A program made the translations under genes and the position numbers. A stretch of 63,806 nucleotides of DNA, filler included, from Lama guanicoe (Eukaryota): assembly GCA_013239625.1 (NCBI GenBank). It is 77 parts of 75 records of this genome, joined end to end, with 100 filler letters (N's around TTAATTAATTAA, not from the genome) between each part and the next. Parts side by side here need not be neighbours in the genome. Positions count along the whole stretch, not along the records: positions 33,834 to 34,739 come from PNXV01010282.1; positions 34,840 to 35,817 come from MU054880.1; positions 35,918 to 36,766 come from MU054881.1; positions 36,867 to 37,649 come from MU054884.1; positions 37,750 to 38,831 come from MU054887.1; positions 38,932 to 39,719 come from MU054893.1; positions 39,820 to 40,648 come from PNXV01010452.1; positions 40,749 to 41,786 come from MU054896.1; 69 more parts are not named here. One strand, 5' to 3'. Shown piece after piece: positions 33,834 to 63,083 of this stretch (positions are counted from its first letter, which is position 1; every line of letters begins with the position of its first letter). The notes beneath the pieces were generated by a model, which searched no databases, was not told the origin of the DNA, and saw only the letters and a program-made list of their open reading frames with translations.

Positions 33834-34739
33834 GGCCAAATGCTGCCACCTAGGGTTGCCTATGCCACATGAACACCATTTCTAATAACAGCAGAACTAG
33901 AGAATTCCACAGACCAGCAAATCTTAAAAGTATTCAGCAGTTCAAAACTTCCTCTAAAAGGAAGGTTGAGAATACTCCCCTGAATAGAAAAGCAGCAAGA
34001 TGAAATGGAAAGAAGAAAACCATTATTGGAAATGCAAGAAGAGCATGAGTGGCAAAGAAGAAACAAGAAGAAGGCAAGGAGGACATCAAAACCCTAAAAA
34101 AACCTAAAGATGGGCGAGGGAAGCTGGAAATCATAGGTGATTGGAAGCACTCTTTTAAGTGAATCAGCTTATTTGACTCTCTGAAGCGAAAGGAGAGATG
34201 CATGGCCTGCGGTCATTGCAAAACTAGCAAGAAGCAGACCAACAAAGAAACAAACCAACAAACAAGCACCAAAATGGTACGGTTGGCTGACATATACCAA
34301 GGGAACCATGATTATTCAAAAGAAAATACTCAAGGTGATGTCAAGGATCCTTCAGCAAGCATCGACCCAGTATCGCGGCTTGCATGTACTCAGCACACTT
34401 GTATTCGGAAATCAGAAGCGTGCATTCATATTCGTAAATATAGATTCATAAGAGCATATCGTGACCTCAGCAAAATGCCGATTTGGAATCAAATTGATTC
34501 CTAGTACGTGATGTAGAATTGTATGTCTTCCAACAGGATGAAGGAATGCCATATTCTACGCTACGTAGAGAAGAAATGTAAGAAGCCTATAACAAAGGCA
34601 AGTAGCTCTGCCAAAGTGTACTAAGAGCAAAAGAGTCAGACAGTAAATGCACATTGGGATTGGTTTCATTTCTTGGAATTTCAGCCCCCGTGAAACCAAT
34701 GGATTCATGTCCTGAGAGTGTGGGTGTTTCAGCAGAAAT
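33834..34739 (+). repeat. L1-derived multi-kb repeat unit: ORF1 end, spacer and an L1M-3'-like segment
   Basis: 33834-34015 is a near reverse complement of 59539-59715 and overlaps 44349-44395. Confidence 0.8.
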
Positions 34740-35572
34740 NNNNNNNNNNNNNNNNNNNNNNNNNNNNNNNNNNNNNNNNNNNNTTAATTAATTAANNNNN
34801 NNNNNNNNNNNNNNNNNNNNNNNNNNNNNNNNNNNNNNNGGTGCATCTGGACCCCAGTGCTCCACTAAATCAGGACATCTTATTAAAACACTCCCATGTA
34901 ACCATGAGAAGTCAACAAAAGGGATAAGAGTCCCTCTTGTGAACATGGAGCCCTAAATGCACAAGGTCAGAACCACTGGGAGCCATTGCTCCGACCACAT
35001 GGAGGAGCCTGACAGGATATTAACATGAACTTTGCATGTATCTTCTCTATTAATGCTATTCATCTTCATATTACATCTGGAAATACAGTATCTTTCTAAT
35101 AGCTTTCTAGTAATTCTAGGAACATCATCAAGGATCTGCTTTTTCTTCAGCTCTTATAGGCTACACGCCAGATGGTCGCCAGATTATCCACTTAAACTAT
35201 CAAAGCGTTTAACCTTACTACTGTAAACAATCTTTTCACAGGGATGCAACTCACAGTTTATGAACCTGAAGAAAGCTCTTCCTAGCGGGAATACCCTGTC
35301 AGGGCGCTGTCCTGCGGCAGGAGTCCCAGCCTCTCCCCTTCTAGAAAAGGATGAGGTGCACTTCAGGGGACCTACCAGCTGCCACGCCACGGNNNNNNNN
35401 NNNNNNNNNNNNNNNNNNNNNNNNNNNNNNNNNNNNNNNNNNNNNNNNNNNNNNNNNNNNNNNNNNNNNNNNNNNNNNNNNNNNNNNNNNNNNNNNNNNN
35501 NNNNNNNNNNNNNNNNNNNNNNNNNNNNNNNNNNNNNNNNNNNNNNNNNNNNNNNNNNNNNNNNNNNNNNNN

Positions 35573-35810
35573 CTCTGCAACCGACAGTCAGAAGGAGCAC
35601 AGGGACGAGCACCAGGCGGTCCCACGAGGTGCATCCTCAGGTGTGAGGCCACTTTTTCCTCACGAAATGTGTAATGGTGTCCATGCTTCTGCTCTGCAAC
35701 CGACAGTCAGAAGGAGCACAGGGACGAGCACCAGGCGGTCCCACGAGGTGCATCCTCAGGTGTGAGGCCACTTTTTCCTCACGAAATGTGTAATGGTGTC
35801 CATGCTTCTG
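35573..35810. repeat. Exact 119-bp tandem duplication beside a gap
   Basis: ctctgcaaccgacagtc at 35573 and 35692. Confidence 0.9.
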
Positions 35811-35917
35811 TTCTGCCNNNNNNNNNNNNNNNNNNNNNNNNNNNNNNNNNNNNNNNNNNNNTTAATTAATTAANNNNNNNNNNNNNNNNNNNNNNNNNNN
35901 NNNNNNNNNNNNNNNNN

Positions 35918-36766
35918 AGAGAGCTTCGTGGAGTTATCTCTCGAGCTCCCGCACTCAATGACAATGTTTCCGGAGTCCTGAGCGTGGGGAGGTTACACCA
36001 ACGGTCGACAGCGCGTGGGTTCTCAGGGAATGCCTGTGCTCGTCTCCCCTGAGGGTTTTCCTCATTTCTCTGTGCCAGCTAATGCTAGGGGGGGTTGCAG
36101 GGAATCCCAGTGACAGAGGCTGCCTCCCCAAGGTCAGGGAAGTTATTTCTCGGACTTCCCCGAGCAGGGAACACCTGTGACTGAAGAGAGCTGCGTGGAG
36201 TTGTCTCTCGAGCTCCCCCACTCAATGACAATGGTTCCGGAATCCTGAGCGTGGGGAGGTTCCACCAACGGTCGGCAGCGCGTGGNNNNNNNNNNNNNNN
36301 NNNNNNNNNNNNNNNNNNNNNNNNNNNNNNNNNNNNNNNNNNNNNNNNNNNNNNNNNNNNNNNNNNNNNNNNNNNNNNNNNNNNNNNNNNNNNNNNNNNN
36401 NNNNNNNNNNNNNNNNNNNNNNNNNNNNNNNNNNNNNNNNNNNNNNNNNNNNNNNNNNNNNNNNNNNNNNNNNNNNNNNNNNNNNNNNNNNNNNNNNNNN
36501 NNNNNNNNNNNNNNNNNNNNNNNNNNNNNNNNNNNNNNNNNNNNNNNNNNNNNNNNNNNNNNNNNNNNNNNNNNNNNNNNNNNNNNNNNNNNNNNNNNNN
36601 NNNNNNNNNNNNNNNNNNNNNNNNNNNNNNNNNNNNNNNNNNNNNNNNNNNNNNNNNNNNNNNNNNNNNNNNNNNNNNNNNNNNNNNNNNNNNNNNNNNN
36701 NAAGAGAGCTGAGTTTCCTCTCGATCTCCACCACTCAATGACAATGGTTCCGGAATCCTGAGCGTG
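35918..36766. repeat. 267-bp satellite (family A)
   Basis: ctcaatgacaatg at 35954 and 36221 (period 267). Confidence 0.95.
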
Positions 36767-37479
36767 NNNNNNNNNNNNNNNNNNNNNNNNNNNNNNNNNN
36801 NNNNNNNNNNTTAATTAATTAANNNNNNNNNNNNNNNNNNNNNNNNNNNNNNNNNNNNNNNNNNNNAATTATATTTTATTTCACTTAAGGAAACAATAAT
36901 GTAAAAATTTCTATTAACATGCGCAATAAAAATACATAAAAATATCACTCACTTTTACAGAACTATTATTCAAAGTGTTTTACATATGCAGAGTCAGACT
37001 TGCCATGAAGCTGATGGAATTTGTTTCCGAGCATCTCATTTGTACAAGCCTTTCCAGGGACCTGAAAGTAGTCCTAGAATGAGTTTATATAGGCAGTTTT
37101 TTTTTGTTACATTTAGAAATACATTTATAATTGTGATTTTTTTCTTATTGTAGTTAATATTTTATTTTGTCACTGATATTTATAATCTGTCTTCTATTCC
37201 TTAAATAAAGCCACTTCAAAATGGAGGGGCTTTAAAAATTAAAGGGTCATATAGCCTTGAGCTGTGTTAGGTAGCTATATGAATGGACTGCATTAATTTG
37301 TTTAATTAATATGACAATATGCTTTACACACAAAGAAACAGGACAGGAAAGTTAAGGAACTTCTCTATGAAGGCTGTTTAGTTAATGATATAATATTCAA
37401 AACAAGGCCGTCCGGCTCTTGAGTCCCCTGTTCTGAAAGTCCACACTTATAGACATAGATATTAACACAGATGGAACTC

Positions 37480-37649
37480 CAGACTCTGTCATATATGTAT
37501 GCAGTATGGCTTAATTTATGTAAAATTCCAAACAGGCAAAAATAAATGGCATGTTTCACAGATACATACATTTACAGTAAAAATACAAAGACTAGCAAAG
37601 TACTGGTTAACATAGGACCCATGGTAGGAGTTACCTCTAGAGAAAAAGG
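37480..37649 (+). mobile_element. Ancient L1M-type 3' fragment
   Basis: atttatgtaaaattccaaacaggcaaaa..catacata..gtaaaa..gttacctct. Confidence 0.55.
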
Positions 37650-37749
37650 NNNNNNNNNNNNNNNNNNNNNNNNNNNNNNNNNNNNNNNNNNNNTTAATTA
37701 ATTAANNNNNNNNNNNNNNNNNNNNNNNNNNNNNNNNNNNNNNNNNNNN

Positions 37750-38831
37750 CTTTGTGTGTGTGCTGTTGTTGGAGATACATAGTCCACGCAACCTTATGTG
37801 GGCACAGGTGTTCCCAGGGAGGGAATATACTTTAAAATCCTCCACTGCCAATAGAGAGGCACTCGCTATTACTTGGCTTTTGAGCCCAACCCCCACCTTC
37901 GCTCACTGCTAGGTCTAGGAAAACACTCAGGGAAGATAACCTAAGGGATAATATTAGATCCCAGAAGCTGCTGTCAGTGGGACGTGCCTCCCCACACTCA
38001 GGATACCAGAACAATTCTTCATGTGTGTGCTGGAGNNNNNNNNNNNNNNNNNNNNNNNNNNNNNNNNNNNNNNNNNNNNNNNNNNNNNNNNNNNNNNNNN
38101 NNNNNNNNNNNNNNNNNNNNNNNNNNNNNNNNNNNNNNNNNNNNNNNNNNNNNNNNNNNNNNNNNNNNNNNNNNNNNNNNNNNNNNNNNNNNNNNNNNNN
38201 NNNNNNNNNNNNNNNNNNNNNNNNNNNNNNNNNNNNNNNNNNNNNNNNNNNNNNNNNNNNNNNNNNNNNNNNNNNNNNNNNNNNNNNNNNNNNNNNNNNN
38301 NNNNNNNNNNNNNNNNNNNNNNNNNNNNNNNNNNNNNNNNNNNNNNNNNNNNNNNNNNNNNNNNNNNNNNNNNNNNNNNNNNNNNNNNNNNNNNNNNNNN
38401 NNNNNNNNNNNNNNNNNNNNNNNNNNNNNNNNNNNNNNNNNNNNNNNNNNNNNNNNNNNNNNNNNNNNNNNNNNNNNNNNNNNNNNNNNNNNNNNNNNNN
38501 NNNNNNNNNNNNNNNNNNNNNNNNNNNNNNNNNNNNNNNNNNNNNNNNNNNNNNNNNNNNNNNNNNNNNNNNNNNNNNNNNNNNNNNNNNNNNNNNNNNN
38601 NNNNNNNNNNNNNNNNNNNNNNNNNNNNNNNNNNNNNNNNNNNNNNNNNNNNNNNNNNNNNNNNNNNNNNNNNNNNNNNNNNNNNNNNNNNNNNNNNNNN
38701 NNNNNNNNNNNNNNNNNNNNNNNNNNNNNNNNNNNNNNNNNNNNNNNNNNNNNNNNNNNNGTGCTGCCGTCAGTTTGAAGATCCTCCCCACACTTAGGAT
38801 AGCCGAAGAGTTTTTCGTGTGTGTGCTGGAG
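37750..38831. repeat. Family B satellite
   Basis: 37750-38035 matches 49463-49772. Confidence 0.9.
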
Positions 38832-39819
38832 NNNNNNNNNNNNNNNNNNNNNNNNNNNNNNNNNNNNNNNNNNNNTTAATTAATTAANNNNNNNNNNNNN
38901 NNNNNNNNNNNNNNNNNNNNNNNNNNNNNNNCTATCCCAGTTTGAATTCCTTAATCAAGTCATATTTATGATAAGTCCCTGACACTTTCCCATGAGCACT
39001 CATAGAAACAGAACAGGGCCTGGCAGTGGCTGTGGGCCAGGTTCCTGGGTGAGGGGACTTGCTGGGCCCTTCAGGTTCTGTAGTCTGGCCCGAGCTTAGC
39101 TCCCAGCACGGCNNNNNNNNNNNNNNNNNNNNNNNNNNNNNNNNNNNNNNNNNNNNNNNNNNNNNNNNNNNNNNNNNNNNNNNNNNNNNNNNNNNNNNNN
39201 NNNNNNNNNNNNNNNNNNNNNNNNNNNNNNNNNNNNNNNNNNNNNNNNNNNNNNNNNNNNNNNNNNNNNNNNNNNNNNNNNNNNNNNNNNNNNNNNNNNN
39301 NNNNNNNNNNNNNNNNNNNNNNNNNNNNNNNNNNNNNNNNNNNNNNNNNNNNNNNNNNNNNNNNNNNNNNNNNNNNNNNNNNNNNNNNNNNNNNNNNNNN
39401 NNNNNNNNNNNNNNNNNNNNNNNNNNNNNNNNNNNNNNNNNNNNNNNNNNNNNNNNNNNNNNNNNNNNNNNNNNNNNNNNNNNNNNNNNNNNNNNNNNNN
39501 NNNNNNNNNNNNNNNNNNNNNNNNNNNNNNNNNNNNNNNNNNNCATTCACTCAATTTGCCCCATTTTCAGTATCCACTGTGCTGCAAAACATAGACTAAT
39601 GTTCAGAATATGACAGCAAGGCCTTTCCCGTTCCACAGTCAGAGAAGCATGAATGTGTTATGTTTAATGCACCATATGACACTAAGCAAGGCAGGAAAAC
39701 AGGCTCCTGTGCTTTAAGANNNNNNNNNNNNNNNNNNNNNNNNNNNNNNNNNNNNNNNNNNNNTTAATTAATTAANNNNNNNNNNNNNNNNNNNNNNNNN
39801 NNNNNNNNNNNNNNNNNNN

Positions 39820-40318
39820 CAATAATGCTTTGGCAATTCTAGGTCTTTTATGGTTCCATATAAATTTTGCTATGATTTGTTCTAGTTCTGTGAAAAATGT
39901 CCTGGGTAATTGGATAGGGATTGCATTAAATCTGTAGATTGCCTTGGGCAGTTGTGACCATTTTAACAATATTGATTCTTCCAATCCAGGAGCATAGGAT
40001 ATCTTTCCATTTTTTTAAGTCTTCTTTAATTTTCTTCATCAATGTTGTATAGTTCTCCGTGTATAATTCTTTCACCTCCTTGGTTAGATTTATTCCTAGA
40101 TTATTACTTTGGGTTCTATTTTAAAGGGGATTGTTTCTTTATTTTCTTTTACTGTTGATTCATCATTAGTGTAAAGAAATGCAACAGATTTTTGTACATT
40201 AATCTTGCAACCTGCTACATTTCTGAAAGCTTTGATCGGCTCTAGCAGTTTTTATGTGGACCTTTTATGGTTTTCTATACACAGTATCATGTCATCTGCA
40301 TATAGTGACACTTTTACC
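39820..40318 (-). mobile_element. Young LINE-1 ORF2 (RT and post-RT), 5'-truncated
   Basis: [44 protein letters not shown]; catgtcatctgcata = YADDM on the minus strand. Confidence 0.93.
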
Positions 40319-40748
40319 AATCCAGATTCAAGTGAAGAGAATATAGCCACTGTGTCTTGTTAGGGGAAGCTGTAAACTCAGATTGCAAACAGCATGGATT
40401 TTAAGGAGGTCATCAATTGATGCCATCAATAGAATAAATCAATACATAAGAAACTTGGAAACATTTGGTTAGAAGGATTGAAAATAGTAAACAAAGCCAA
40501 ATGCCAAGAGCTGGGTCGAAATGTAATGAACACAGCAACTTTAATGATAAAGAGAGTTCTGGATAATTAGTAACAGTTCACATGACTATGACTCACATAT
40601 ATTGATGTTTGATTCACAAAAGTGAACGTAGCTCACTTTTAAAGGTACNNNNNNNNNNNNNNNNNNNNNNNNNNNNNNNNNNNNNNNNNNNNTTAATTAA
40701 TTAANNNNNNNNNNNNNNNNNNNNNNNNNNNNNNNNNNNNNNNNNNNN

Positions 40749-41786
40749 GGAAAAGGTGTACCGTTTAGGGAGAAGTCCTCTAAGTATTTCCTCAGTGTAT
40801 CAGGAGGCAATCACTGCTACTTGGCCTGCAAGCCCAACCCCCAGCTTTCCCTCATGGCCTGTCCTAAAGGAACACTCAGGGAACAGAAGCTAAGTGATAC
40901 TAAAAGAACCCAGGTGCTGCTGTCAGTTGGAGGAAACTCCCCACACTCAGAAAACCAGAACAATTCTTCGCGTGTGTGCTGCATGTAGGGAAACAGTCAA
41001 AGCATCATTCAGGGGGCACATTTATTCCATGGTTGTGNNNNNNNNNNNNNNNNNNNNNNNNNNNNNNNNNNNNNNNNNNNNNNNNNNNNNNNNNNNNNNN
41101 NNNNNNNNNNNNNNNNNNNNNNNNNNNNNNNNNNNNNNNNNNNNNNNNNNNNNNNNNNNNNNNNNNNNNNNNNNNNNNCAGGCGCTGCTGTCATTTGGAG
41201 GAGTCTCCACACAATCAGAATACCTGAGCACGTTTCCGTGTGTGTGCTGGAGGTGGGGAAACAGATTCCACGCATCTTTAAGGGGCACAGGTGTTCCAAT
41301 GTTGGGGAAGTATTTTAAAACCGTCCACTACCCACAGAGATGCACTCGCTAATACTTGGCTTTAGAGCCCATCCCCCACCATCGCTTACTGCTAGGCCTA
41401 GGAAAACACTTAGGGAAGTCAAGCTAAGGGATTCTATTACAACCCAGGTGCTGCTGTCAGTTGGAGGAACCTACCCACACTCAGAACCCCAGAACACTTC
41501 TTCCTGTGTGTGCAGGACATGGGGAAAGAGCACACGCATTTTCATGGGTCACAGTAATTCCCAAGTTGTGGGTTGTAGTTTAAACATCTCCACTACCCAT
41601 GGAGAGGCACACGCTAATACTTAGTTTTAGATCCCAAATCCCACTTTCAAAGACACACTGGCCTAGGCAAACCATCAGGGAATACAAGCAAAGGGATTCT
41701 ATTTAAACGAAGACGCTGATATCAGTTGGAGGAACTTCCCCACCCTCAGGATACTGTAACCCAACCTTGTGTGGTGGGGAGATTTG
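40749..41786. repeat. Family B satellite
   Basis: Four cores; 40790-41037 matches 13359-13604. Confidence 0.92.
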
Positions 41787-41886
41787 NNNNNNNNNNNNNN
41801 NNNNNNNNNNNNNNNNNNNNNNNNNNNNNNTTAATTAATTAANNNNNNNNNNNNNNNNNNNNNNNNNNNNNNNNNNNNNNNNNNNN

Positions 41887-42327
41887 ATCTTGCTTCTTTC
41901 CTATTTAGAGTAGACCTGTCAATATTTCTTCTAGCGGGGGTTTAGTGTTGCTAAACTATTTTAGTTTTTGCTTGTCTGTGAAATTCTTTATTTCTCCTTC
42001 TATTCTGAAGGATAGCCTTGCTGGATAGAGTTTCCTAGGCTGCATCTTTTGTTCATTCAGGACTTTGAATATATCTTGCCACACTCCCTTCTGGCCTGTA
42101 GTATTTGTGTAGTGAAATCAGCTGAGAGCCTTATGGGGGTTCCCTTATAACTCACTCTTTGTTTTTCTCTTGCTGCCTTTAGGATCATTTCTTTATCCTT
42201 GAATCTGGCCATTTTGATGATGATATGTCTTGATGTGAGTCTGTTTGGGTTTTTCCTGTTTGGGACCCTCTGAGCCTCCTGTAGTTGAATATCTGATTTC
42301 TTCTTTAGGTTTGGAAAGTTTTCAGTC
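41887..42327 (-). mobile_element. LINE-1 ORF1 3' half
   Basis: Same segment as 12685-13115. Confidence 0.92.
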
Positions 42328-42427
42328 NNNNNNNNNNNNNNNNNNNNNNNNNNNNNNNNNNNNNNNNNNNNTTAATTAATTAANNNNNNNNNNNNNNNNN
42401 NNNNNNNNNNNNNNNNNNNNNNNNNNN

Positions 42428-43145
42428 TAATATTGAATTTAGAAAATACAATATAGAACACAGAATATGGAATGTACAATACGGAATGTCTAATATTGAA
42501 TACAGAGTATAGAATGTAGAACACAGAATGAAGAATATGGAAAACAGAATACAGAAACGAGAATTTAGAACATGGAATGCACAACACAGAATTTAGAATA
42601 TAGAATACCGAATACTAAATATAGAATATGAATATACAATGTANNNNNNNNNNNNNNNNNNNNNNNNNNNNNNNNNNNNNNNNNNNNNNNNNNNNNNNNN
42701 NNNNNNNNNNNNNNNNNNNNNNNNNNNNNNNNNNNNNNNNNNNNNNNNNNNNNNNNNNNNNNNNNNNNNNNNNNNNNNNNNNNNNNNNNNNNNNNNNNNN
42801 NNNNNNNNNNNNNNNNNNNNNNNNNNNNNNNNNNNNNNNNNNNNNNNNNNNNNNNNNNNNNNNNNNNNNNNNNNNNNNNNNNNNNNNNNNNNNNNNNNNN
42901 NNNNNNNNNNNNNNNNNNNNNNNNNNNNNNNNNNNNNNNNNNNNNNNNNNNNNNNNNNNNNNNNNNNNNNNNNNNNNNNNNNNNNNNNNNNNNNNNNNNN
43001 NNNNNNNNNNNNNNNNNNNNNNNNNNNGAATATAGAAAATATAGAATTTAGAACACAGAATTAAGAATATAGAGTATAGTATATAGAACCCAGAACTTAG
43101 AACATGGAGTGCAGAACACAGAATTTAGAATATAGAATACAGAAT
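42428..43145. repeat. AT-rich heptamer satellite
   Basis: agaatat/agaacac/ggaatgc units. Confidence 0.93.
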
Positions 43146-43245
43146 NNNNNNNNNNNNNNNNNNNNNNNNNNNNNNNNNNNNNNNNNNNNTTAATTAATTA
43201 ANNNNNNNNNNNNNNNNNNNNNNNNNNNNNNNNNNNNNNNNNNNN

Positions 43246-44606
43246 CGACGAGCGTTTCCTAAGGTAAATGTGATTCTACCCACTAGCGTCCCATAAGCCT
43301 ATGTTCTTCCCTCTCTCCTTCTCTTCAGATCTGTATGCACAGTGCCAACGGAGGGAAGTGTGTCCATTTTCAGTTGATTTATTTCACACGTCTTTAAACT
43401 TTCTAACCGTTCACAGTACACAGAGACCCACTAAAGGNNNNNNNNNNNNNNNNNNNNNNNNNNNNNNNNNNNNNNNNNNNNNNNNNNNNNNNNNNNNNNN
43501 NNNNNNNNNNNNNNNNNNNNNNNNNNNNNNNNNNNNNNNNNNNNNNNNNNNNNNNNNNNNNNNNNNNNNNNNNNNNNNNNNNNNNNNNNNNNNNNNNNNN
43601 NNNNNNNNNNNNNNNNNNNNNNNNNNNNNNNNNNNNNNNNNNNNNNNNNNNNNNNNNNNNNNNNNNNNNNNNNNNNNNNNNNNNNNNNNNNNNNNNNNNN
43701 NNNNNNNNNNNNNNNNNNNNNNNNNNNNNNNNNNNNNNNNNNNNNNNNNNNNNNNNNNNNNNNNNNNNNNNNNNNNNNNNNNNNNNNNNNNNNNNNNNNN
43801 NNNNNNNNNNNNNNNNNNNNNNNNNNNNNNNNNNNNNNNNNNNNNNNNNNNNNNNNNNNNNNNNNNNNNNNNNNNNNNNNNNNNNNNNNNNNNNNNNNNN
43901 NNNNNNNNNNNNNNNNNNNNNNNNNNNNNNNNNNNNNNNNNNNNNNNNNNNNNNNNNNNNNNNNNNNNNNNNNNNNNNNNNNNNNNNNNNNNNNNNNNNN
44001 NNNNNNNNNNNNNNNNNNNNNNNNNNNNNNNNNNNNNNNNNNNNNNNNNNNNNNNNNNNNNNNNNNNNNNNNNNNNNNNNNNNNNNNNNNNNNNNNNNNN
44101 NNNNNNNNNNNNNNNNNNNNNNNNNNNNNNNNNNNNNNNNNNNNNNNNNNNNNNNNNNNNNNNNNNNNNNNNNNNNNNNNNNNNNNNNNNNNNNNNNNNN
44201 NNNNNNNNNNNNNNNNNNNNNNNNNNNNNNNNNNNNNNNNNNNNNNNNNNNNNNNNNNNNNNNNNNNNNNNNNNNNNNNNNNNNNNNNNNNNNNNNNNNN
44301 NNNNNNNNNNNNNNNNNNNNNNNNNNNNNNNNNNNNNNNNNNNNNNNNGGCGGTCATGTGGCATAGGCTACCCGAGATGGCAGCATTTTGCCATTCAGGT
44401 TATGGTCTATGTCCTGGCACTCCTCCCTGTCCTGCAATATTGCTGCCCGAGATATCAGCTGAAACCCCTCTGGAGGTTCTCTTGTGACTATGGTGATTTT
44501 TTCCAGGCGCGTTTTAAATCACTGGGATGCTCATGAACTTTGTTGATTTTAATAATACAGCAGCCGGTAGGTCTATTGGGATTCCAACACCTTTGGACCC
44601 TGTGTA
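43246..44606 (-). repeat. L1-derived multi-kb repeat unit (scaffold links the ORF1 end to the downstream segment)
   Basis: 43246-43425 is a reverse-complement match to 61700-61875; 44392-44600 is a reverse-complement match to 45020-45230. Confidence 0.85.
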
Positions 44607-44706
44607 NNNNNNNNNNNNNNNNNNNNNNNNNNNNNNNNNNNNNNNNNNNNTTAATTAATTAANNNNNNNNNNNNNNNNNNNNNNNNNNNNNNNNNNNNNN
44701 NNNNNN

Positions 44707-45241
44707 GATAATATCAGGGGTAAAATTCAGTCCTAAGCAGACAAGATAATGCAGAACGACGCGTGAATGACTGTGAAGACAGGGGAACAGAATTCCCTCG
44801 GTCAGAAGCAGACATAGGAAAGCAAGTGCAAACCAATGAAAACATTGCTGTTGAATCCTCGGGTAAGACAAGGCATGAAAGACTAGGATTCGTAAGAGTC
44901 CCAGATGGAAAAGGAAGAGATAAAGAAACAAAAATTTTTGAAATGTTATCTGTAGAAAAATCAGACTGAAACTTGCTGAAAGCCAAGAAAGAATCATCTA
45001 TTTGAATTCAGGAAGTAAACAGGGTCCAAAGGAGGTGGAATCCCAATAGACCTACCAGCAGCTGTATGATTGAAATCAACGAAGTTCATGAGCATCCCAG
45101 GGAATTGAAATGAGCTTGGAGGAATGCAAATTAGTCACAAGAGAATCTCCAGAGGGTTTCAGCTGATATATCGGCAGCAATATTGCAGGACTGGGAGGAG
45201 TGCCAGGACATAGACCATATCCTGAATGGTATTTGGGTATT
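44707..45241 (+). repeat. L1-derived repeat unit, dead ORF1 middle
   Basis: gtcacaagagaatctccagagggtttcagctgat..gagtgccaggacata aligns to L1 ORF1 at 32972-33050; 44707-44815 matches 60136-60245 reversed. Confidence 0.85.
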
Positions 45242-45341: not shown

Positions 45342-45946
45342 ACAAGATGCAGCAGCCATTGGGGATGGCAGTTAGCGGTTGGATTCCTGGAGGAATGTTG
45401 ATGTGTACCGCGAGGCTTGTTGTTTCTGGTGGAACCTAGGCAACCGGGCAGAGTTCTGTGGGTGGATCAGTGCGATGGAGGGGCTGCCGCCCTCTGTGGA
45501 GCTTGGCTTAGGTCTTTGGTCCGGGAAGCTGTGTCAGTTCGAGATACTGCTGCTGCCCAAAGACCTCAGTTCACGGGTCAGTTTCCAGAACCTGANNNNN
45601 NNNNNNNNNNNNNNNNNNNNNNNNNNNNNNNNNNNNNNNNNNNNNNNNNNNNNNGGTCCTTTCAGACTTGCCCAGTCCTGTTGAAGTCGACTTTATGGGA
45701 GACATTAAGAGAAGCTGGCCGAACATATGGCTGCACGGATTGAGGAGAGATGCGAACACATTGATGAGAGATGTTCTGCTACAATAGAGAATACTGGCCT
45801 GGAGACAGCTGTAGAGGATAGCAGGCTCGAAAGGCATTCATGAGACATATTGGATCTCGCTGATACTAGCAGAAACATACGGAGGCACAACGTGGAATGG
45901 AGGAAGTTCCTCAAATCTCTGCTCCAAGAACGGGTCCAAGATCCCT
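45342..45946 (+). repeat. L1-derived repeat unit, downstream non-L1 segment
   Basis: 45342-45718 aligns closely with 61900-62270. Confidence 0.88.
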
Positions 45947-46046: not shown

Positions 46047-46796
46047 CCCATACTATTTTGATTAGGATAACCTCATTTTGATTACGCTTATCTCATAAAA
46101 TGTGAAAGAGCACAGGACACTTCCTCTGGTGGAAATGGAGCTTCTAACGGTTCTCAGCTCTGCATTCTACTCTATGTTATTTTGGAGTGTTTCCAGAAGA
46201 GCAGAGTGTGAGTGCGCTTGTGCTTTTTAGTGCCACGGGAATGTCCCACTGAAACCAGTTCTTCCAAGAGCTTCTCTGTCTACAGAAACATCAGTGGAAG
46301 CATATCTATGGATATCAGACATCAGGGCCTGCTGGAATGATCCCGCAGCCCGAACTTGCTGTCCTCGCTGCCGAAAAGTGCCAGTGCCATCCAAAATGTA
46401 GCATCCGCTTTTGAGAGATAAACGGAAGGAAATCCTTCCTCTTCTCACGCTGTGGTCTTGGACCACACTTCCTTGTCCTCTCATCCTTGTGGCACGGGTG
46501 CACGAAGGCAACCACANNNNNNNNNNNNNNNNNNNNNNNNNNNNNNNNNNNNNNNNNNNNNNNNNNNNNNNNNNNNNNNNNGGTGTTCATCACAACAAAG
46601 GCAACACCAGCAATTGGAGATAGACCAGACAACACACACAGGAACAGGACATGGCATCAATGTCTAGGAAAATTTGTCCTCACAGAAATCCCATGCAATT
46701 GTGAAGAGCCAAGAGTCTAAAGTTTTCATTTAACCAAGCCCTAGAAATTTACATTAGATACCTGAAATTACCTGACCAGTAGAGATGAAGAAATAC
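46047..46796 (+). repeat. L1-derived repeat unit, upstream segment and ORF1 start region
   Basis: 46607-46796 is a near-identical reverse complement of 60478-60667. Confidence 0.85.
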
Positions 46797-46896: not shown

Positions 46897-47377
46897 AAAC
46901 ACTTACACTGGTTTCTCAGTGTGTTTCCAAGTGTCGGTTGGAATTTCTGCACTTTTCACTGTAAAACTGTGATGGAGCTTGTACCTCCCCATGTATATGT
47001 ATGTGGAGTAGTTTGAAACTGGAAAGAAACTTTGCGTTCCCTTTAAGAGGGTTGAAGGACGGTTATCACACACAGTTATTTCTCAGAACTGAGCATGTGG
47101 AGAGACGTTCGTTCATCCAGCACAAAGGGAACGTGTTGCAGGAGAAACACTTTCACTGGTTTCTCAGTCGGTTTCCTAGTGCCGGTTTGATGTTCTTGCA
47201 GTTTTCACTGTAAAACAGATTTGGATATTGTACCTCCCCATATATATGTATGTAGTGGAGTAGGCAACTTATAAAAAACTTTGTATTCCCTTCATGCTTG
47301 GTGAAGAGAAGCTTTCAGACGCACATATCCCTCAGAACTGAGCATTGGAAGAGATGTTCGTTCATCCAGCACAAACG
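46897..47377. repeat. Family C satellite, period 248
   Basis: cactggtttctcagt at 46906 and 47154. Confidence 0.92.
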
Positions 47378-47477: not shown

Positions 47478-48176
47478 CAGTGACAGAGGCGGCCTCCCCA
47501 AGGTCAGGGAAGGTGTTTCTCGGACTAACCCATTCAGGGAACACCTGTGAATGAACATAGCTGCGTGAAGTTGTCTCTCGAGCTCCCGCACGCACTGACA
47601 ATTGTTCCGGAAGCCTGAGCGTGGGGAGGTTCCACCAACGGTCGGCAGCNNNNNNNNNNNNNNNNNNNNNNNNNNNNNNNNNNNNNNNNNTTTTTCCTAA
47701 TGTCTCTGTGCCAGGGAATGCTAGGGGTGTTTGTAGGAAATCCCAGTGACAGAGGCTGCGTCCCCAAGGTCAGGAATGGTATTTCCCAGAATTCCCCATA
47801 ACAGGGAATACCTGTGACAGAAGAGAGCTGCGTGGAGTTGTCTCTCGAGCTCCCCACGCACTGACAATTGTTCCGGAATCCTGACCGTGGGGAGGTTCCA
47901 GCAACGGTCGGCAGCGCGTGGGTTCTAACGGAATGCCTAAGCTCGACTCCCCTGGGTTTTTTCCTAATGTCTTTGTGCCAGGGAATGCTAGGGGGTTTGC
48001 AGGAAATCCCAGTGACAGAGGCTGCCTCCCCAAGTTCAGGGAAAGTATTTCTCAAAATTCCCCCTAACAGGGAACACCTGTGACAGAATAGAGCTGCGTG
48101 GATTTGTCTCTTGAGCTCCCCCACGCAGACAATGGTTCCGGAATCCTGACCGTGGGGAGGTTCCAGCAACGGTCGG
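47478..48176. repeat. 267-bp satellite (family A)
   Basis: cagtgacagaggc repeated three times at about 266-267 bp spacing. Confidence 0.95.
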
Positions 48177-48414: not shown

Positions 48415-48535
48415 GGGGAGAGGGTATAGCTCAGTGGTAGAGCGGGTGCTTAGCATGCACGAGGTCCTGGGTTCAGTCCCCAGCACTGAAATAAACCTAA
48501 TTATCTCCCCACAATAAATAAATAAATAAAAATAG
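48415..48535 (+). mobile_element. tRNA-derived SINE (camelid Vic-type) with A-rich tail
   Basis: tagctcagtggtagagc (A box), gggttcagtccc (B box), then (aaat)n tail. Confidence 0.88.
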
Positions 48536-49274: not shown

Positions 49275-49782
49275 CCTCTAAGTAATTCCTCAGTAAATCA
49301 GGGGGCACTCGTTGCTACTTGGAATTCAAACCCAAACCCCACTTTCCCCCACCCTCCAGCCTAGGCATGCCATCAGGTAAGACAAGCTAAGGGATTCTAT
49401 TAGAACCCAGGCGCTGCTGTCAGTTGGAGGAGGCTCCCCACACTCAGGATACATGAACAAGTCTTTGTGTGAGTGCTTTTGTTGGAGATACATAGTCCAC
49501 GCAACTTTAAGGGGGCACAGGTGTTCCCAGGGAGGGAATGTTCTTTAAACACCTCCACTGCCCATAGAGAGGCACTCGCTATTACTTGGCTTTAGAGCCC
49601 AACCCCCACCTTCGCTCCCATCCCGTCCTTGGAAAACACTCAGGGAAGATAACCTAAGGGAACCAATTACAAGGGAAGATAAGGGACCCTATTAGATCCG
49701 AGATGCTGCTGTCAGTGGGAGGTGCCTCCCCAAACTCAGGATACCAGAACAATTCTTCATGTGTGTGCTGGAGGTGGGGAAA
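49275..49782. repeat. Family B satellite
   Basis: Matches 28577-28883 and 37750-38035. Confidence 0.92.
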
Positions 49783-49911
49783 NNNNNNNNNNNNNNNNNN
49801 NNNNNNNNNNNNNNNNNNNNNNNNNNTTAATTAATTAANNNNNNNNNNNNNNNNNNNNNNNNNNNNNNNNNNNNNNNNNNNNTATTATAACTGCGTCGCG
49901 TAGTGCTAGTT

Positions 49912-50075
49912 TAAGATCCTCGGTTGATTGAATTTGAGGATGTAAAGCCCACGGATGCAGATATGGGGGGCCAAGTAGGGAACTTGAGCATCCTTGGATT
50001 TTGGTGTCCACAGGGGGTCCTGGGAAAAAACCCTCCCCTGCTCCCACCCCCAAGCAGATACCTAAGGACAACAGT
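49912..50075 (-). mobile_element. MER2/Tigger-type non-autonomous DNA transposon fragment
   Basis: acttgagcatccttggattttggtgtccacagggggtcctgg..gatacctaaggacaacag. Confidence 0.75.
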
Positions 50076-50786
50076 GTGTATATATACACATATATGTATA
50101 CATATGTGTGTGTATATATGTATACTTATAAACACTTAATCATAGGAAGTTGGTATTTTTGTTGTCCCTACTTTACATGTAAAGAAACTGAAACTTCATA
50201 TAATTTGTGTTTTGAAGCAACAGTATTTCAAAACTCCAGATTATTAAAAAGAATAATATCAACTAATTCTCTTGCTCAGAGGATTAACTTAGAAGAAAAT
50301 CTTTGCATGTTATGTTAATTNNNNNNNNNNNNNNNNNNNNNNNNNNNNNNNNNNNNNNNNNNNNTTAATTAATTAANNNNNNNNNNNNNNNNNNNNNNNN
50401 NNNNNNNNNNNNNNNNNNNNTGATTTGATACAAATAAACAAGGTTTTCTGGTCTGATTTAAAAAATTTCATTTAGAAATGAGTGTTTTTCTTTTTGTAAT
50501 TTTCGAGCCAAGATCCTTCCTCTCTTCTAGTCATGCGTCAAGTTGAACTTTTAGCGAAGACATACCATATTACAAGAAAAAGGAAAAGGAATAAACACTG
50601 ATATAAAAGGTCAAAGCTAAGTAACTGAGCTCTGGCAGTTTTTCTTCCTCTTATGATTGATAGAAAAGGAAATTGAAATGTGGAAATCCTGGTTTAAAAT
50701 TAGTTGTTCTTTCTATCAAGTTAATATTACATATCTGCTAAATGTTGTAGTACATATAATATATAACTGCGTCACGTAGTGCTAGT

Positions 50787-50952
50787 TTAAGATCCTCGGT
50801 TGTTTGAATTTGAGGATGCAAAGCCCACGGATGCAGATATGGGGGGCCAAGTAGGGAACTTGAGCATCCTTGGATTTTGGTGTCCACAGGGGGTCCTGGG
50901 AAAAAACCCTCCCCTGCTCCCACCCCCAAGCAGATACCTAAGGACAACAGTG
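50787..50952 (-). mobile_element. MER2/Tigger-type fragment (second copy of the same locus)
   Basis: Near-identical to 49912-50075 including flanks. Confidence 0.75.
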
Positions 50953-51879
50953 TGTATATATACATATATATGTATATATATATGTATACTTATAAACACT
51001 TAATCATAGGAAGTTGGTATTTTTGNNNNNNNNNNNNNNNNNNNNNNNNNNNNNNNNNNNNNNNNNNNNTTAATTAATTAANNNNNNNNNNNNNNNNNNN
51101 NNNNNNNNNNNNNNNNNNNNNNNNNAACTTGTTTATGTATTTAATTTAGTCCCATGCATCTGTCATTAAGGGTAGTGTTAGATATTTTAATAAGGAGACA
51201 GAAATGCTTTTCACTGGCGACAAATTTTTTTCCCTAAGACAGATTTACCTATATTTTCTCCTTTCAGCTAGACTCCTTTATGTCTTTTTGTCTTTGTTGT
51301 GTGAGCAAGAAATTTCAGAATGATGTTGGTAAAATGGGGTCATGTGGATTACCCATTCAATACTTAATGTCAAAAGCATTTAGCACTTCACTGATGACTA
51401 ATACTTTTGATTAGATAGATATTCATCACTGCTGACTTCTACTGTTCTTTTAAAGTGTTAGAAATGTTTGTTGAACTTTACCAAATGACGGATCATCTAT
51501 CGGAAGGAGTTTTGTTTCCTAATTTGTTCAATGGACATTTTATGCTGTAGACAGATGGCCATCTATTATCTTAACATCTTGCTTTTATTGATCAGAATCA
51601 ACCCTACTGTGGTGTTTATTACCCTCCAGGGCCACCAGGCCATGAGAGTTCTCATAACTACTATTATTTCTNNNNNNNNNNNNNNNNNNNNNNNNNNNNN
51701 NNNNNNNNNNNNNNNTTAATTAATTAANNNNNNNNNNNNNNNNNNNNNNNNNNNNNNNNNNNNNNNNNNNNCTGAGGCAATATTTGTTAATAAGGCCCTT
51801 TCCTCATCTCTTCTGAGCCATCATTTCTTTCTCTGCATAATGAGGGTTTAGACTAGATAAGTGCTTTTCAGTTTCTTTT

Positions 51880-52312
51880 AAAGCAATGGTCCCTTTGAGA
51901 AACAGAAAATGCAAATCTCTCCTCTCAAACCAACCCTTTAGATTTTGATAAATCCTCCAAGGAGTGACATAGCTATTTGTGGAAAATTGAAGTGACTGTG
52001 ATTCCAGGTGGCACAGAAGAGACTTCAGAGATTTATTGCAGGGAGAGTGCAGGAAAGAGGCAGTATGTCACACTTTCTAGTGTGAGCATTGGAGCAGGGG
52101 CTTGGATTTAAATACGGTGTCTGACATGGCCTCTCTCTAATCTTGTACAATATCTACCTCAGTTTCTTGATGTGTCAAGATGGAGTGATAATATTTTAGG
52201 GCTTTAGTGAAACATTATACACAGAATCCATTTGTGTCTCGGTAGAAACAGACCTGCTAGGGATTCAGGGATTTAAAAGAAAAAAGAATCTTGTCCTTAG
52301 CACTGTGTCGGT
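51880..52312. repeat. Low-copy duplicated segment, paralog of 15388-15853
   Basis: Reverse-complement alignment with scattered substitutions and indels. Confidence 0.85.
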
Positions 52313-56770: not shown

Positions 56771-57109
56771 CATTTGGCATTTGTGGATTTTTAAAAGGCG
56801 GCCATTCAGACTGGTGTGAAGTGATGCCTCATTGTAGTTTTGATTTGCAATTCTCTGATTATTAGTGATATTGAGCATTTTTTCATGTGCTTTTTGATCA
56901 TTTGTATGTCTCCCTTGGAGAATTGCTTATTTAGGTCTTCTGCCCATTTTTGGATTGGGTTGTTTATTTTTTTCTAATTGAGTTGTATGTGCTGCTTATA
57001 TATTTTAGAGATCAAGCTTTTGTCAGTTTAACTTACAAAAATTTTCTTCCGTTCTGTAGATTTTATTCTTGTTTTATTTCTGGTTTCCTTTGCTCTGCAG
57101 AAGCTTGTA
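56771..57109 (-). mobile_element. LINE-1 ORF2 3' region
   Basis: ggccattcagactggtgtgaagtgatgcctcattgtagttttgatttgca. Confidence 0.9.
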
Positions 57110-58383: not shown

Positions 58384-58835
58384 TAGTTTGGTGCAGTTGT
58401 TATGGAAAACAGTATGGAGATTCCTTAAAAAACTAAAAAGAGAGTCACTATATGATCCAGCAATCCCACTCCTGGGCATATATCCAGAGGGAACTCAAAT
58501 TTGAAAAGAATACATGCACCCCAGTGTTCATAGCAGCACTATTTACAGTAGCCAAGACATGGAAACAGCCTAAATGTCCACTGACAGATGACTAGATAAA
58601 GAAATTGTGGTATATTTATACAGTGGAATACTACTCAGCCATAAAAAGAATAAAATAATGCCATTTGCAGCAACATAGATGGACCTGGAGATTGTCATTC
58701 TANNNNNNNNNNNNNNNNNNNNNNNNNNNNNNNNNNNNNNNNNNNNNNNNNAAGAAAAATAGATATCACTTATACGTGGAATCTGAAAAAAAAAAAAGAC
58801 ACAAATTAACTTACTTACAAAACAGACACAGACTC
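58384..58835 (+). mobile_element. LINE-1 ORF2 C-terminus and start of 3' UTR
   Basis: tatgatccagcaatcccactcctgggcatatatcca ([12 protein letters not shown]); gccaagacatggaaacagcctaaatgtcca (AKTWKQPKCP). Confidence 0.93.
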
Positions 58836-58935
58836 NNNNNNNNNNNNNNNNNNNNNNNNNNNNNNNNNNNNNNNNNNNNTTAATTAATTAANNNNNNNNN
58901 NNNNNNNNNNNNNNNNNNNNNNNNNNNNNNNNNNN

Positions 58936-59438
58936 TAATGTATTAGTGTTGTTTTCTCCCTTAATGTCCGTTAGCGCTTGCTTACTACATTTAGGTGCTC
59001 CTGTACTAGGTGCGTACATGTTATGCATGTTCTGTTCTCTTCTTGTGTTGATCCTTTCTCATTATGTAATGCCCTTCTTTGTCCTTTATTACAGACTTTA
59101 AAAAAATTTTTAAAGTCTCCTTTGTCTGATATGAGTATTGCTGCACAGCTTTCTTTTTGTTTCCATTTGCATGGATATCTTCTTTCATCCTCTCTCTTTC
59201 ACTCTGCATGTGTCTTTAGCTCTGAAGTGAGTTTCTTGTAGGCATCATATAAAGGTCTTGTTTTTTATCCAATCAGCCATCCTATGTAGTTGGATTGGGT
59301 CATTTAGTCCAAGTGATTATTGATAATTATGTACTTATTCTCATTTTGTTAATCGTCTTCTGATGTTTCTGTAGTTCTTCTCTTTTTTTGTCTTCTCTTA
59401 GTCTCTTACGTTGTATTTTGATAACTTTCATTAGTTAA
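58936..59438 (-). mobile_element. LINE-1 ORF2 endonuclease N-terminus
   Basis: IHANGNKKKAV..KDKEGHYIM on the minus strand. Confidence 0.85.
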
Positions 59439-59538
59439 NNNNNNNNNNNNNNNNNNNNNNNNNNNNNNNNNNNNNNNNNNNNTTAATTAATTAANNNNNN
59501 NNNNNNNNNNNNNNNNNNNNNNNNNNNNNNNNNNNNNN

Positions 59539-60667
59539 TTCCATTTCTTCTTGCTGCTTATCCTTTCAGGGGAGAATTCTCAACCTTCCTTTTAGAATAA
59601 GTTTCGAACTGCTGAATTCTTTTAAGATTTGCAAGTCTGTGGCATTCTCTAGCTCTGCTGTTATTAGAAATGGTGGTCATGTGGCATAGGCTACCCTAGA
59701 TGGCAGCATTTTGCCATTCAAGCTATGGTCTGTNNNNNNNNNNNNNNNNNNNNNNNNNNNNNNNNNNNNNNNNNNNNNNNNNNNNNNNNNNNNNNNNNNN
59801 NNNNNNNNNNNNNNNNNNNNNNNNNNNNNNNNNNNNNNNNNNNNNNNNNNNNNNNNNNNNNNNNNNNNNNNNNNNNNNNNNNNNNNNNNNNNNNNNNNNN
59901 NNNNNNNNNNNNNNNNNNNNNNNNNNNNNNNNNNNNNNNNNNNNNNNNNNNNNNNNNNNNNNNNNNNNNNNNNNNNNNNNNNNNNNNNNNNNNNNNNNNN
60001 NNNNNNNNNNNNNNNNNNNNNNNNNNNNNNNNNNNNNNNNNNNNNNNNNNNNNNNNNNNNNNNNNNNNNNNNNNNNNNNNNNNNNNNNNNNNNNNNNNNN
60101 NNNNNNNNNNNNNNNNNNNNNNNNNNNNNNNNNNNCTATGTGTGATTCTGACCGAGGGATTTCTGTTCCCCTGTCTTCAAAGTCATTCACGCGTCCCTCT
60201 GCAATATCTCGTTTTCTTAGGATGGAATGTTAGCCCTGATATATTCTCAACCACTGAGTTTTCTGATATTATTTGGCTCGTCTTTAGGCTTTCTCTTCCC
60301 CTTTTCTGGTATTCTGCCTTTTGTGATTCTGAGACACTGTTGTTCTTCAGTGTTTCCCTCACCTCCATTTTCAATACTTGCTCTGGAGAGCGTTTTGCAG
60401 TCTAGTTGTCTGAAAGCTTATCTTTAGGGCCTTCAATCTCTTTGGAACTGAAAATGGTACTTCCTTTTCCTTTTACTGTATTTCTTCATCTCTACTGGTC
60501 AGGTAATTTCAGGTATCTAATGTAGACTTCTAGGGCTTGGTTAAGTGGAAACTTTAGACTCTTGGCTCAACACAATTGCATGGGATTTCTGTGAGGACAA
60601 ATATTCCTAGACATTGAGGCCATGTCCTTTTCCTGTGTGTGTTGTCTGGTCTATCTCCAATTGCTGG
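59539..60667 (-). repeat. L1-derived repeat unit spanning dead ORF1 from start to end
   Basis: Overlaps 33834-34015, 44707-44815 and 46607-46796. Confidence 0.85.
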
Positions 60668-60767
60668 NNNNNNNNNNNNNNNNNNNNNNNNNNNNNNNNN
60701 NNNNNNNNNNNTTAATTAATTAANNNNNNNNNNNNNNNNNNNNNNNNNNNNNNNNNNNNNNNNNNNN

Positions 60768-61599
60768 TACCACATTCTATATTCTGCATTCTGTATACTG
60801 TATACTATATTCTTTGATTTACATTCTATATTCAAAGTGCTATATATAGTATTCTGTATTCTATAATCTAAATTCTGTGTTCTGCATTCCATGTTGTAAA
60901 TTCTGAGTTCTATATTCTCTACCATATTCCATATTGTGTGTTTTTCATTCTATATTCTACATACTATATTCTGCATTCCGTATTCTATGTTTTATGTTAT
61001 ATGTTCTACATTCTGTATTGTAAATTCTATATTCAGAATTCTGTATTCTATATTCTAAATTCTGTGTTCTATATTCCATGTTCTAAATTCTGTGTTCTAT
61101 ATTCCGTATTTTCTATTCTATATTTTGAGTTCTAAATTCTATATTCTAAATTCTATATTCAGTATTTTGTTTTCTATTTTCTATATACTGTGTTCTGCAA
61201 TCCATGTTCTATATTCAATATTCAATATTCTGTATTCTATATTCCAAATTCTGTCTTGTGTATTCTATGTTCTAAATTCTATATTCAGTATTTTGTATTC
61301 TATTTTCTAAATTCTGTGATCTGCATTCCATCTTTTAAATTCTGGGTTCTATATTTACTATTCTATATTCCATATTCTGTGTTCTACATTCTATATTCTA
61401 AATTCTATATTGAGAATTCAGTATTCGATTTTCTAAATTCTGTGTTCTGCACTCCAAGTTCTAAATTCTATATTCAGTATTCTGTGTTCTGTATTCTACA
61501 TATATTCTTCATTCGGTGTTCTACATACTATACACTAAATTCCATATTCTGGATTCTGTATTCTATATTCTAAATTCTGTGTTCTGCATTCCATTTCTA
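60768..61599. repeat. AT-rich heptamer satellite with 126-bp period
   Basis: Marker heptamer pair at 61069, 61195, 61321, 61447. Confidence 0.95.
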
Positions 61600-61699
61600 N
61601 NNNNNNNNNNNNNNNNNNNNNNNNNNNNNNNNNNNNNNNNNNNTTAATTAATTAANNNNNNNNNNNNNNNNNNNNNNNNNNNNNNNNNNNNNNNNNNNN

Positions 61700-63083
61700 C
61701 TGTGTACTGTGAACTGTTAGAAAGTTAAAGAAGTGTGAAACCATCAACAGAAAAGGGACACACTTCCTTCCATTGGTTCTGTGAATACAGATCTGAACAA
61801 AAGGAAAGAGAGAAGAAGAAAGGCGCATGGGACTCTAGTGGGTAGAATCACATTTGACTTAGTAACCATTCGTCAGATGCAGCCCCTCCCCCAACACTGA
61901 CAAGATGCAGCAGCCATTGGAGATGTCAGTTACCGGTTGGATTCCAGGTGGAATGTTGGTGTGTACCGCGAGGCTTGTTGTGGCTGTTGGATCCTAGGTA
62001 ACCGGGCAGATATCTGTGGGTGGATCAGTGTGATGGAGGGGCTGCCGCCCTCTGTGGAGCTTGGCTTAGGTGTTTGATCAGGGAAGCTGTGTATGTTCGA
62101 GATACTGCTGCTGCCCAAAGACCTGAGTTCACAGGTCAGTTTCCAGAACCTGAAAGGGCAGACAGTGGAAGATCTGCCTGTCATCAGCTTACTGGTCAGG
62201 CTCCGAGGTACTGTCAGACTTCCCCGGTCTTATTGAAGTCGACTTTAGGGGAGACACGAAGAGAAGCTGGNNNNNNNNNNNNNNNNNNNNNNNNNNNNNN
62301 NNNNNNNNNNNNNNNNNNNNNNNNNNNNNNNNNNNNNNNNNNNNNNNNNNNNNNNNNNNNNNNNNNNNNNNNNNNNNNNNNNNNNNNNNNNNNNNNNNNN
62401 NNNNNNNNNNNNNNNNNNNNNNNNNNNNNNNNNNNNNNNNNNNNNNNNNNNNNNNNNNNNNNNNNNNNNNNNNNNNNNNNNNNNNNNNNNNNNNNNNNNN
62501 NNNNNNNNNNNNNNNNNNNNNNNNNNNNNNNNNNNNNNNNNNNNNNNNNNNNNNNNNNNNNNNNNNNNNNNNNNNNNNNNNNNNNNNNNNNNNNNNNNNN
62601 NNNNNNNNNNNNNNNNNNNNNNNNNNNNNNNNNNNNNNNNNNNNNNNNNNNNNNNNNNNNNNNNNNNNNNNNNNNNNNNNNNNNNNNNNNNNNNNNNNNN
62701 NNNNNNNNNNNNNNNNNNNNNNNNNNNNNNNNNNNNNNNNNNNNNNNNNNNNNNNNNNNNNNNNNNNNTTCCTAGAATCAGAGTTCCTCCAGCTTCACAC
62801 TCTGTGAACAACAGTGAACTCCTTAAAGTTCAAAAAGTCTCGGCTGAAATAGATAGGAATTGAATACTTAGCTCACACATAGAAACGATGGCCTTCCGCT
62901 AGATTCAGCAAATGTTGTGTATGTCTTCACTGGGGTGAAGGGAATGTGGTAAGTGAGGGGAATCTTTGACTGAACTTGAATCTGTATTAGGCCTCAGTTT
63001 TTCAAGAATGTATAGGTAAATAGTACAAGCCAGAATGTGAACTGTACTGTTTAAGCCGCCAATGAAATTAAACACACAGCTTA
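61700..63083 (+). repeat. L1-derived repeat unit, downstream segment
   Basis: Overlaps 43246-43425 (reversed) and 45342-45718. Confidence 0.82.

Follow-up and report, generated by a model that had tools for sequence, protein, structure and literature searches.

The window considered here is a stretch of 63,806 nucleotides (nt) from Lama guanicoe (assembly GCA_013239625.1), composed of 77 short, unplaced scaffolds of a short-read assembly, set end to end and separated by an artificial linker. Seven of these scaffolds form a single closed blastn cluster, with 84–95% identity among each other and no match at E<=1e-5 to the remaining 70. An initial annotation of this DNA had described them as parts of one unit, several kb long and composite, and such a unit is found, in which a part derived from open reading frame 1 (ORF1) of an L1 retrotransposon is joined to non-L1 DNA. 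With a probability of about 0.87, the seven scaffolds stem from the ~5.3-kb camelid macrosatellite published as VpaSat08/09/11/12, each being an unplaced, collapsed fragment from another of its copies, and the unit carries a decayed L1 5′ half.

Tiling of the seven scaffolds

The order and strands previously proposed for the seven scaffolds are borne out by their blastn overlaps. Along the tile, 46607-46796 overlaps 60667-60478 (95%, 190 nt), 60242-60136 overlaps 44711-44817 (87%, 107 nt), 45016-45229 overlaps 44606-44391 (87.5%, 216 nt), 44349-44408 overlaps 59672-59731 (93%, 60 nt), 33834-34010 overlaps 59715-59539 (90%, 177 nt), 43247-43423 overlaps 61874-61700 (84%, 177 nt) and 45342-45595 overlaps 61900-62153 (92%, 254 nt); scaffold 45342-45946 furthermore covers ~230 nt of the N gap inside 61700-63083. 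No overlap in sequence joins 34739 to 43437(-); within the window data this link depends on the N gap, in which 33834-34739 takes up 862 of 911 N and leaves 49, in agreement with its earlier description as a near-fill of a ~910-N gap. The published start of VpaSat11 has ~52 bases across this link, against 49 predicted by the gap (hand count), and it presents the end of 33834-34739, then 43437-43246(-), then 61700-61920 in that order. An independent check on the ORF1 link of the tile comes from contigs of the public run X9, whose loose end before 33838 is a repeat of 45202-45229. The resulting path is linear and measures ~3,855 nt (~3.86 kb), in which no gene was found; since its two ends do not overlap, the window by itself gives no head-to-tail arrangement. 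The parts of the unit are listed in Table 1, followed by the other satellites of the window.

Table 1. Parts of the tiled unit and other tandem repeats, in positions of the window
Feature	Position	Strand	Remarks
Upstream part of the unit	46047-46796	+	95% to 60667-60478; ends at likely ORF1 start ATG 46785-46787
~95 nt of L1 upstream of ORF1 and first third of dead ORF1	60136-60667	-	likely ATG 60489-60487
Middle of dead ORF1: end of coiled coil, RNA recognition motif (RRM), start of C-terminal domain (CTD)	44707-45241	+	alignment to L1
Second copy of ORF1 RRM/CTD	44349-44606	-	net 5-nt loss and premature TGA 44356-44354
Copy of ORF1 C-terminus	59539-59733	-	common premature TGA 59679-59677
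ORF1 C-terminus	33834-33983	+	premature TGA 33870-33872; original stop position 33981-33983
Camelid-type L1 ORF1-ORF2 spacer	33984-34326	+	aligned to 12700-12364(-)
DNA at expected ORF2 start; neither ORF2 nor L1 3′ end detected	34327-34739	+	
Part of the unit mate-linked to 44349-44606 over 911 N	43246-43437	-	84% to 61700-61874; motif in VpaSat11
Non-L1 part of the unit	61700-62270	+	exact VpaSat08 forward primer site 62054-62073
Second copy of non-L1 part	45342-45946	+	primer site 45496-45515, 1 mismatch
Downstream tile end	62769-63083	+	reverse complement of VpaSat09 start
AT-rich 7-bp satellite	666-1189, 11716-12263, 22583-24036, 25864-26795, 33219-33733, 42428-43145, 60768-61599		
265-267-bp satellite	6674-8768, 10063-10923, 13359-13841, 14492-15287, 19325-20488, 28055-28883		
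265-267-bp satellite, further copies	35918-36766, 37750-38831, 40749-41786, 47478-48176, 49275-49782		
249-bp tandem repeat, three scaffolds	28984-29615, 31822-32050, 46897-47377		

Identity with a published alpaca satellite

The alpaca satellite recorded as VpaSat08-5290, VpaSat09-5280, VpaSat11-5308 and VpaSat12-5280 has monomers of 5,280–5,308 bp and was discovered as tandem patterns in self dot-plots (PMC13751797). In fluorescence in situ hybridization (FISH) the four families co-localised in block-like signals above the centromere, on the short arms of 16–20 chromosome pairs, and a product of the polymerase chain reaction (PCR) was obtained from every camelid tested; the pairwise identity reported among them is 25–50%, their abundance being left unquantified (PMC13751797). 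Sex linkage of the family is unlikely, since it was mapped to 16–20 chromosome pairs.

The resemblance of the tile to VpaSat08/09/11/12 extends over a primer site, the consensus starts, the order of parts and AT content. The VpaSat08 forward primer has an exact and a one-mismatch site (Table 1) and the VpaSat12 reverse primer is found at 46339-46358 with 3 mismatches, each compared with 0/100 matching shuffles; the published VpaSat08 product measures 603 bp, and the one predicted here, over an estimated gap, ~620 bp (hand count). The consensus comparison covered the initial 400 bases of every published monomer. Within this reach all four window motifs, picked after a match by eye, were present in the VpaSat09 and VpaSat11 starts: a 25-nt motif of 62769-63083 is located in the VpaSat09 consensus, with a longer match by eye, and the end of 34327-34739 matches the VpaSat11 start by motif. 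In a separate search one of five motifs matched, the 17-nt motif of 44707-45241 being located in the start of the VpaSat12 consensus; the VpaSat08 primer site, although known, was among the four misses, as it lies beyond the 400-character reach. The AT content of 55.5% over 4,735 bases compares with 54.2–55.6% published, weak evidence if taken alone. Judged by these sequence matches, the seven scaffolds are copies of the published VpaSat08/09/11/12 family and not a new one. The initial annotation had put the unit forward as a candidate, naming an end-to-end match to an existing named family as the result that would speak against it; over the compared parts such a match was found by primer and motifs, and novelty of the family is not supported.

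All four VpaSat families can be placed on the single collinear tile, VpaSat09 in reverse, which would be expected of one unit recorded in different phases. VpaSat08/09/11/12 are thus likely one unit under four names, a new but modest point. The VpaSat08 start may resemble an L1 5′ start.

L1 origin and its extent

The L1-homologous part of the unit amounts to ~1.35 kb, about a quarter of the monomer, and by homology it corresponds to the 5′ half of an L1 of camelid type, comprising the end of the 5′ untranslated region (UTR), a full-length ORF1 and the spacer. The homology begins ~95 nt upstream of the ORF1 start and continues downstream through the spacer to 34326. ORF1 itself can be followed over ~300 codons: it starts at ~60489(-), crosses 44707-45241 and then 44606-44349(-), and reaches its stop position at 33981-33983. 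The family ORF1 aligns with ordinary L1 copies at z 8–31. The individual alignments include 60585-60146 against the ordinary L1 at 32224-32652 (z 10.8), 44707-45241 against that at 32151-33118 (z 31) and the spacer 33984-34326 against 12700-12364(-) (z 10.5, 0/200 shuffles). For 44707-45241, the best match in a PDB search was LINE-1 ORF1p (E 2e-5), and tblastn against the intact ORF1 of a reference L1 gave E 1e-13; this reference (L002:920-5323) lies on a metagenome contig and carries 968 codons of ORF2 besides an open ORF1. Further upstream, 46047-46516 is without a detected homologue and gave no significant L1 alignment; it may be L1 5′ UTR or flank. In a comparison of L1 source columns the family agreed with the ordinary L1s of the window in 43, with L002 in 16 and with neither in 21 (p 6e-4), a split that points to a camelid-type L1 as the source.

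Downstream of 34326, no alignment to the beginning of ORF2 in L002 was obtained. Its ~3 kb of ORF2 DNA gave no family match within the 3.86 kb but matched 10 other scaffolds, and 120 ORF2 fragments searched against the family gave only two matches, at E ~0.04. The junction at 34326 is crossed by at least two contigs of run X9. A PDB search with the 113-aa frame at 34163-34501 found nothing relevant. A match of 34283-34468 to L1 endonuclease residues 128-183 was marginal and post hoc (13/1,000 shuffles); with a nearer L1 copy of the window it was not repeated (213/500 shuffles) and, as it also overlaps the spacer alignment, it is regarded as noise.

The initial annotation had further proposed a segment resembling an older L1M 3′ end, for which no significant alignment was found with the young L1s that served as references; it is an unconfirmed candidate. 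When 34300-34739, 43437-43246 and 61700-61900 were compared with the L1 3′ ends of the window, none rose above noise, and the best of 320 segment pairs from reference loci (z 4.2) was on the wrong strand. An L1 3′-end profile, built on young L1s and no L1M 3′ UTR, gave no sense-strand family match at E<=10. The stretch ~34540-34690 may resemble an L1M 3′ end. An exact 21-mer scan of metagenome contigs gave 0 matches.

An ORF1 inactive by the time of the shared ancestor

The derived state quoted in the initial annotation and its ordinary-L1 counterpart are both found in the window, and the wider comparison confirms its description of a dead, heavily mutated L1 ORF1 with lesions common to the copies. 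Of the columns conserved between L002 and the ordinary copies, 308 are represented in at least two family copies; 89 of these carry a common other letter and 36 vary among the family copies; overall the family differs in 189 of 559 conserved columns (34%), against 5–14% for three ordinary copies. A TGA stands in place of the Arg of the YPARxS motif in 3/3 copies, 2/2 copies read DWE/DRE for ARR and lack REKQ, and a net 5-nt loss within 45070-45131 shifts the frame in 2/2 copies. Among the matches listed for public-run contigs on 33834-34739, no variant reaching 20% was found at the premature TGA. In human L1, mutations of RR261-262 and YPAKLS severely reduce retrotransposition and a REKG mutant is termed retrotransposition-defective (PMC2951350). 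The divergence of the family at codon positions 1/2/3 is flat, 0.29/0.36/0.38 (p 0.12), against 0.14/0.14/0.37 (p 2e-7) between L002 and an ordinary copy. The common stop, the frameshift, the broken motifs and the flat divergence together show that the ancestor common to the present copies had a dead ORF1.

The earlier formulation that the locus was amplified after inactivation therefore stands for the common ancestor of the present copies, but not for the order of events, since an earlier amplification followed by homogenisation is conceivable. In that sequence of events, an L1 piece amplified first within the same satellite would have had its lesions fixed later by array homogenisation. The common lesions date just the ancestor of the sampled copies, and the divergence of 34% against 5–14% could mean long array turnover; however, the flat codon-position divergence requires a long unselected phase in either order, and the majority letters are common to the three public runs with contig counts given below, which stand for three coded organisms. 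This order is somewhat unlikely, and decay preceding amplification is the order adopted here.

HAL1 (half-L1) elements raise a related question. They spread as dispersed insertions with a poly-A tail and target-site duplications. They encode ORF1p and have had several independent origins in mammals (PMC5753468). The camelid unit is like them in being L1-derived with ORF1 present and ORF2 not found in the 3.86 kb covered, and it differs in that its ORF1 was not open in the ancestor and in that the unit is tandem (PMC13751797). What was captured could itself have been HAL1-like, with ORF1 only, its death being followed by tandem amplification, in keeping with a complete ORF1 and spacer followed by no detectable ORF2. 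Yet the longest A run in the tile is 7, neither an L1 3′ end nor a third-position excess was detected, and a plain 3′ truncation or deletion gives the same structure, so that a HAL1-like capture is considered unlikely.

Copy number, spread and transcription

Among 24 rows of public data, 17 DNA-type or unlabelled runs from 7 studies and three coded organisms gave shares of 41–48% of sampled words. Four of the 24 runs were mapped to 33834-34739 (906 bases), and in three of these runs 8,017, 2,008 and 4,950 contigs with an identity spread of 85–100% were placed on it, counts that reflect many variants rather than copy number. These thousands of variant contigs support the high copy number claimed initially. 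At many places of 33834-34739 nearly all mapped depth carries another letter, which makes this copy an outlier. The variant shares at 33906, 33916 and 34053, which are depth sums rather than copy shares, differ strongly between the runs X1, X11 and X9, a hint that the mix of subfamilies is not the same in them. As for transcription, three RNA-type rows had a share of 0.06–0.07 and X18, whose RNA status is guessed, gave 4 contigs at a depth of ~3, which provides no evidence of it in these data.

The satellite organisation claimed for the unit is likewise supported, the tandem arrays being known from PMC13751797 and thus from outside the window. A dispersed non-autonomous retroelement, spread by retrotransposition rather than as a satellite, would fit the 5–16% divergence of the copies and a window without a tandem junction. 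Dispersed, 5′-truncated retrocopies should however give unlike flanks, and the share of contigs continuing into unlike sequence was 0 in all three runs; moreover, the ORF1 lesions are common to the copies, there is no poly-A, and the family was defined by tandem dot-plots and block-like FISH signals (PMC13751797). Dispersal of this kind is very improbable, and the HAL1-like spreading offered as an alternative in the initial annotation is disfavoured, ORF1 being broken in the common ancestor. Small unplaced scaffolds are also enriched for duplicated DNA of any kind, and duplication-rich blocks are described in PMC13751797, both of which would suit a low-copy segmental duplication with a chance old L1 fragment. 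Against this stand the occurrence in 7 of 77 scaffolds (the two short satellites of the window occur in 8/77 and 11/77), the thousands of variant contigs and the FISH signal on 16–20 pairs (PMC13751797), and such a duplication is hardly credible as the source of the family.

Several points weigh against the reading of the scaffolds as copies of an L1-bearing VpaSat macrosatellite. A Pfam search found no L1 domain in nine family translations, with a control at E 4e-18. The contig counts are without a single-copy control, and two contigs of X11, among the matches listed, have a loose end at 34473 that is unlike the unit. Missing from the window are ~1.4 kb of the monomer, the head-to-tail junction and the sequence of the internal N gaps. 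The partner of the VpaSat12 primer is not at the distance predicted by the 734-bp product, and six of the eight family primers have no site at <=3 mismatches in the window, two of these six sites being in consensus stretches outside the tile. Finally, the consensus match to the published monomers extends over their 400-base starts only.

Comparison with known systems

The common cetacean satellite has an L1 3′-terminal origin (Kapitonov et al., 1998, as cited in PMC9659126). Like the camelid unit it is a heterochromatic mammalian satellite made partly of L1, but it comes from the L1 3′ end, whereas the camelid unit contains the 5′ half with ORF1 and spacer. PROsat of Phodopus roborovskii, also cited in PMC9659126, has a small ORF2 region inside the satellite; it is likewise a mammalian satellite with L1 coding sequence, yet it holds a piece of ORF2 where the camelid unit holds a whole ORF1 and no detected ORF2. 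The human macrosatellites RNU2 and TAF11-like contain dead transposon pieces (PMC5687341) and resemble the camelid unit as multi-kb composite tandem units; in contrast to it they are single-locus arrays with a gene, while the camelid unit is found on 16–20 pairs and has no gene in the 3.86 kb.

In alpaca, no young transposon families are listed in PMC3183009. In a paper on camel transposable elements (PMC8605555) no word begins with HAL1, satellite, tandem or ORF1, and the main text of PMC13751797 does not once use transpos-, ORF1, RepeatMasker or Dfam. Among the matches listed in the literature the L1 origin of the family is unreported, with Repbase, Dfam, GenBank annotations and subscription journals outside this scope. 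The origin from L1 ORF1 is a new but modest annotation of a catalogued macrosatellite.

Other sequences in the window

An AT-rich satellite without a match to a named family is spread over eight scaffolds; its unit measures 7 bp, with higher periods of 21 and 63 bp. A 265-267-bp satellite with at least two subfamilies occupies eleven scaffolds, and its Tandem Repeats Finder consensus is, by eye, like the start of VpaSat16. By the same kind of comparison the GC-rich 16-bp tandem repeat at 18101-19224 is like the reverse strand of the VpaSat04 start. The ordinary L1 fragments form a further cluster, and two scaffold pairs resemble each other, namely 15388-15852 and 51858-52312 (87% over 466 nt) as well as 49886-50161 and 50762-51025 (94% over 276 nt). 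An exact 97-bp tandem duplication at 16857-17049 and a 119-bp one at 35573-35816 (99%) are probably assembly artefacts. The single Rfam match of the window, a weak tRNA at 48427-48483 (32.7 bits) outside the family, probably belongs to a tRNA-derived short interspersed element. The scaffold at 63184-63806 has 65% GC and a GCC run and is like a CpG-island promoter.

Proposed history and implications

In the history favoured here, a camelid-lineage L1 would have inserted at a single locus, its ORF2 and 3′ part presumably having been lost there or never carried. Its 5′ half then decayed neutrally as DNA, as the common lesions and the flat codon-position divergence show, before a 5.3-kb segment comprising the L1 piece and flanking DNA was duplicated in tandem. 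Going by general satellite biology, spread between short arms may have proceeded through DNA-level recombination such as unequal crossing-over and gene conversion. The PCR product from all camelids tested (PMC13751797) suggests that amplification would have begun before the South American camelid / camel split. No product is encoded by the unit, whose role is most likely that of bulk constitutive heterochromatin.

A bolder proposal joins these elements: a dead camelid L1 5′ half would have seeded the main short-arm heterochromatin of 16–20 pairs, the four families being one unit, with a retained 5′ UTR that is hypothetically still active, either as a promoter of transcription or as a target of silencing directed at L1 (KRAB zinc fingers, HUSH, PIWI-interacting RNA), the latter nucleating heterochromatin on these arms. 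As a whole this is unlikely, though the part that concerns origin is likely. If true, it would make this the first ORF1-derived mammalian macrosatellite among the literature searched.

Since the family is already catalogued, no new repeat is added, and its L1 origin is a useful annotation. The camelid unit would be a second cetartiodactyl L1-derived satellite, from the opposite L1 end to the cetacean one. The common lesions offer markers for the ancestral single-copy locus and for dating the amplification, and in camelid repeat annotation the counts and age profiles of old L1 ORF1 can be inflated by a single dead locus that is present very many times.

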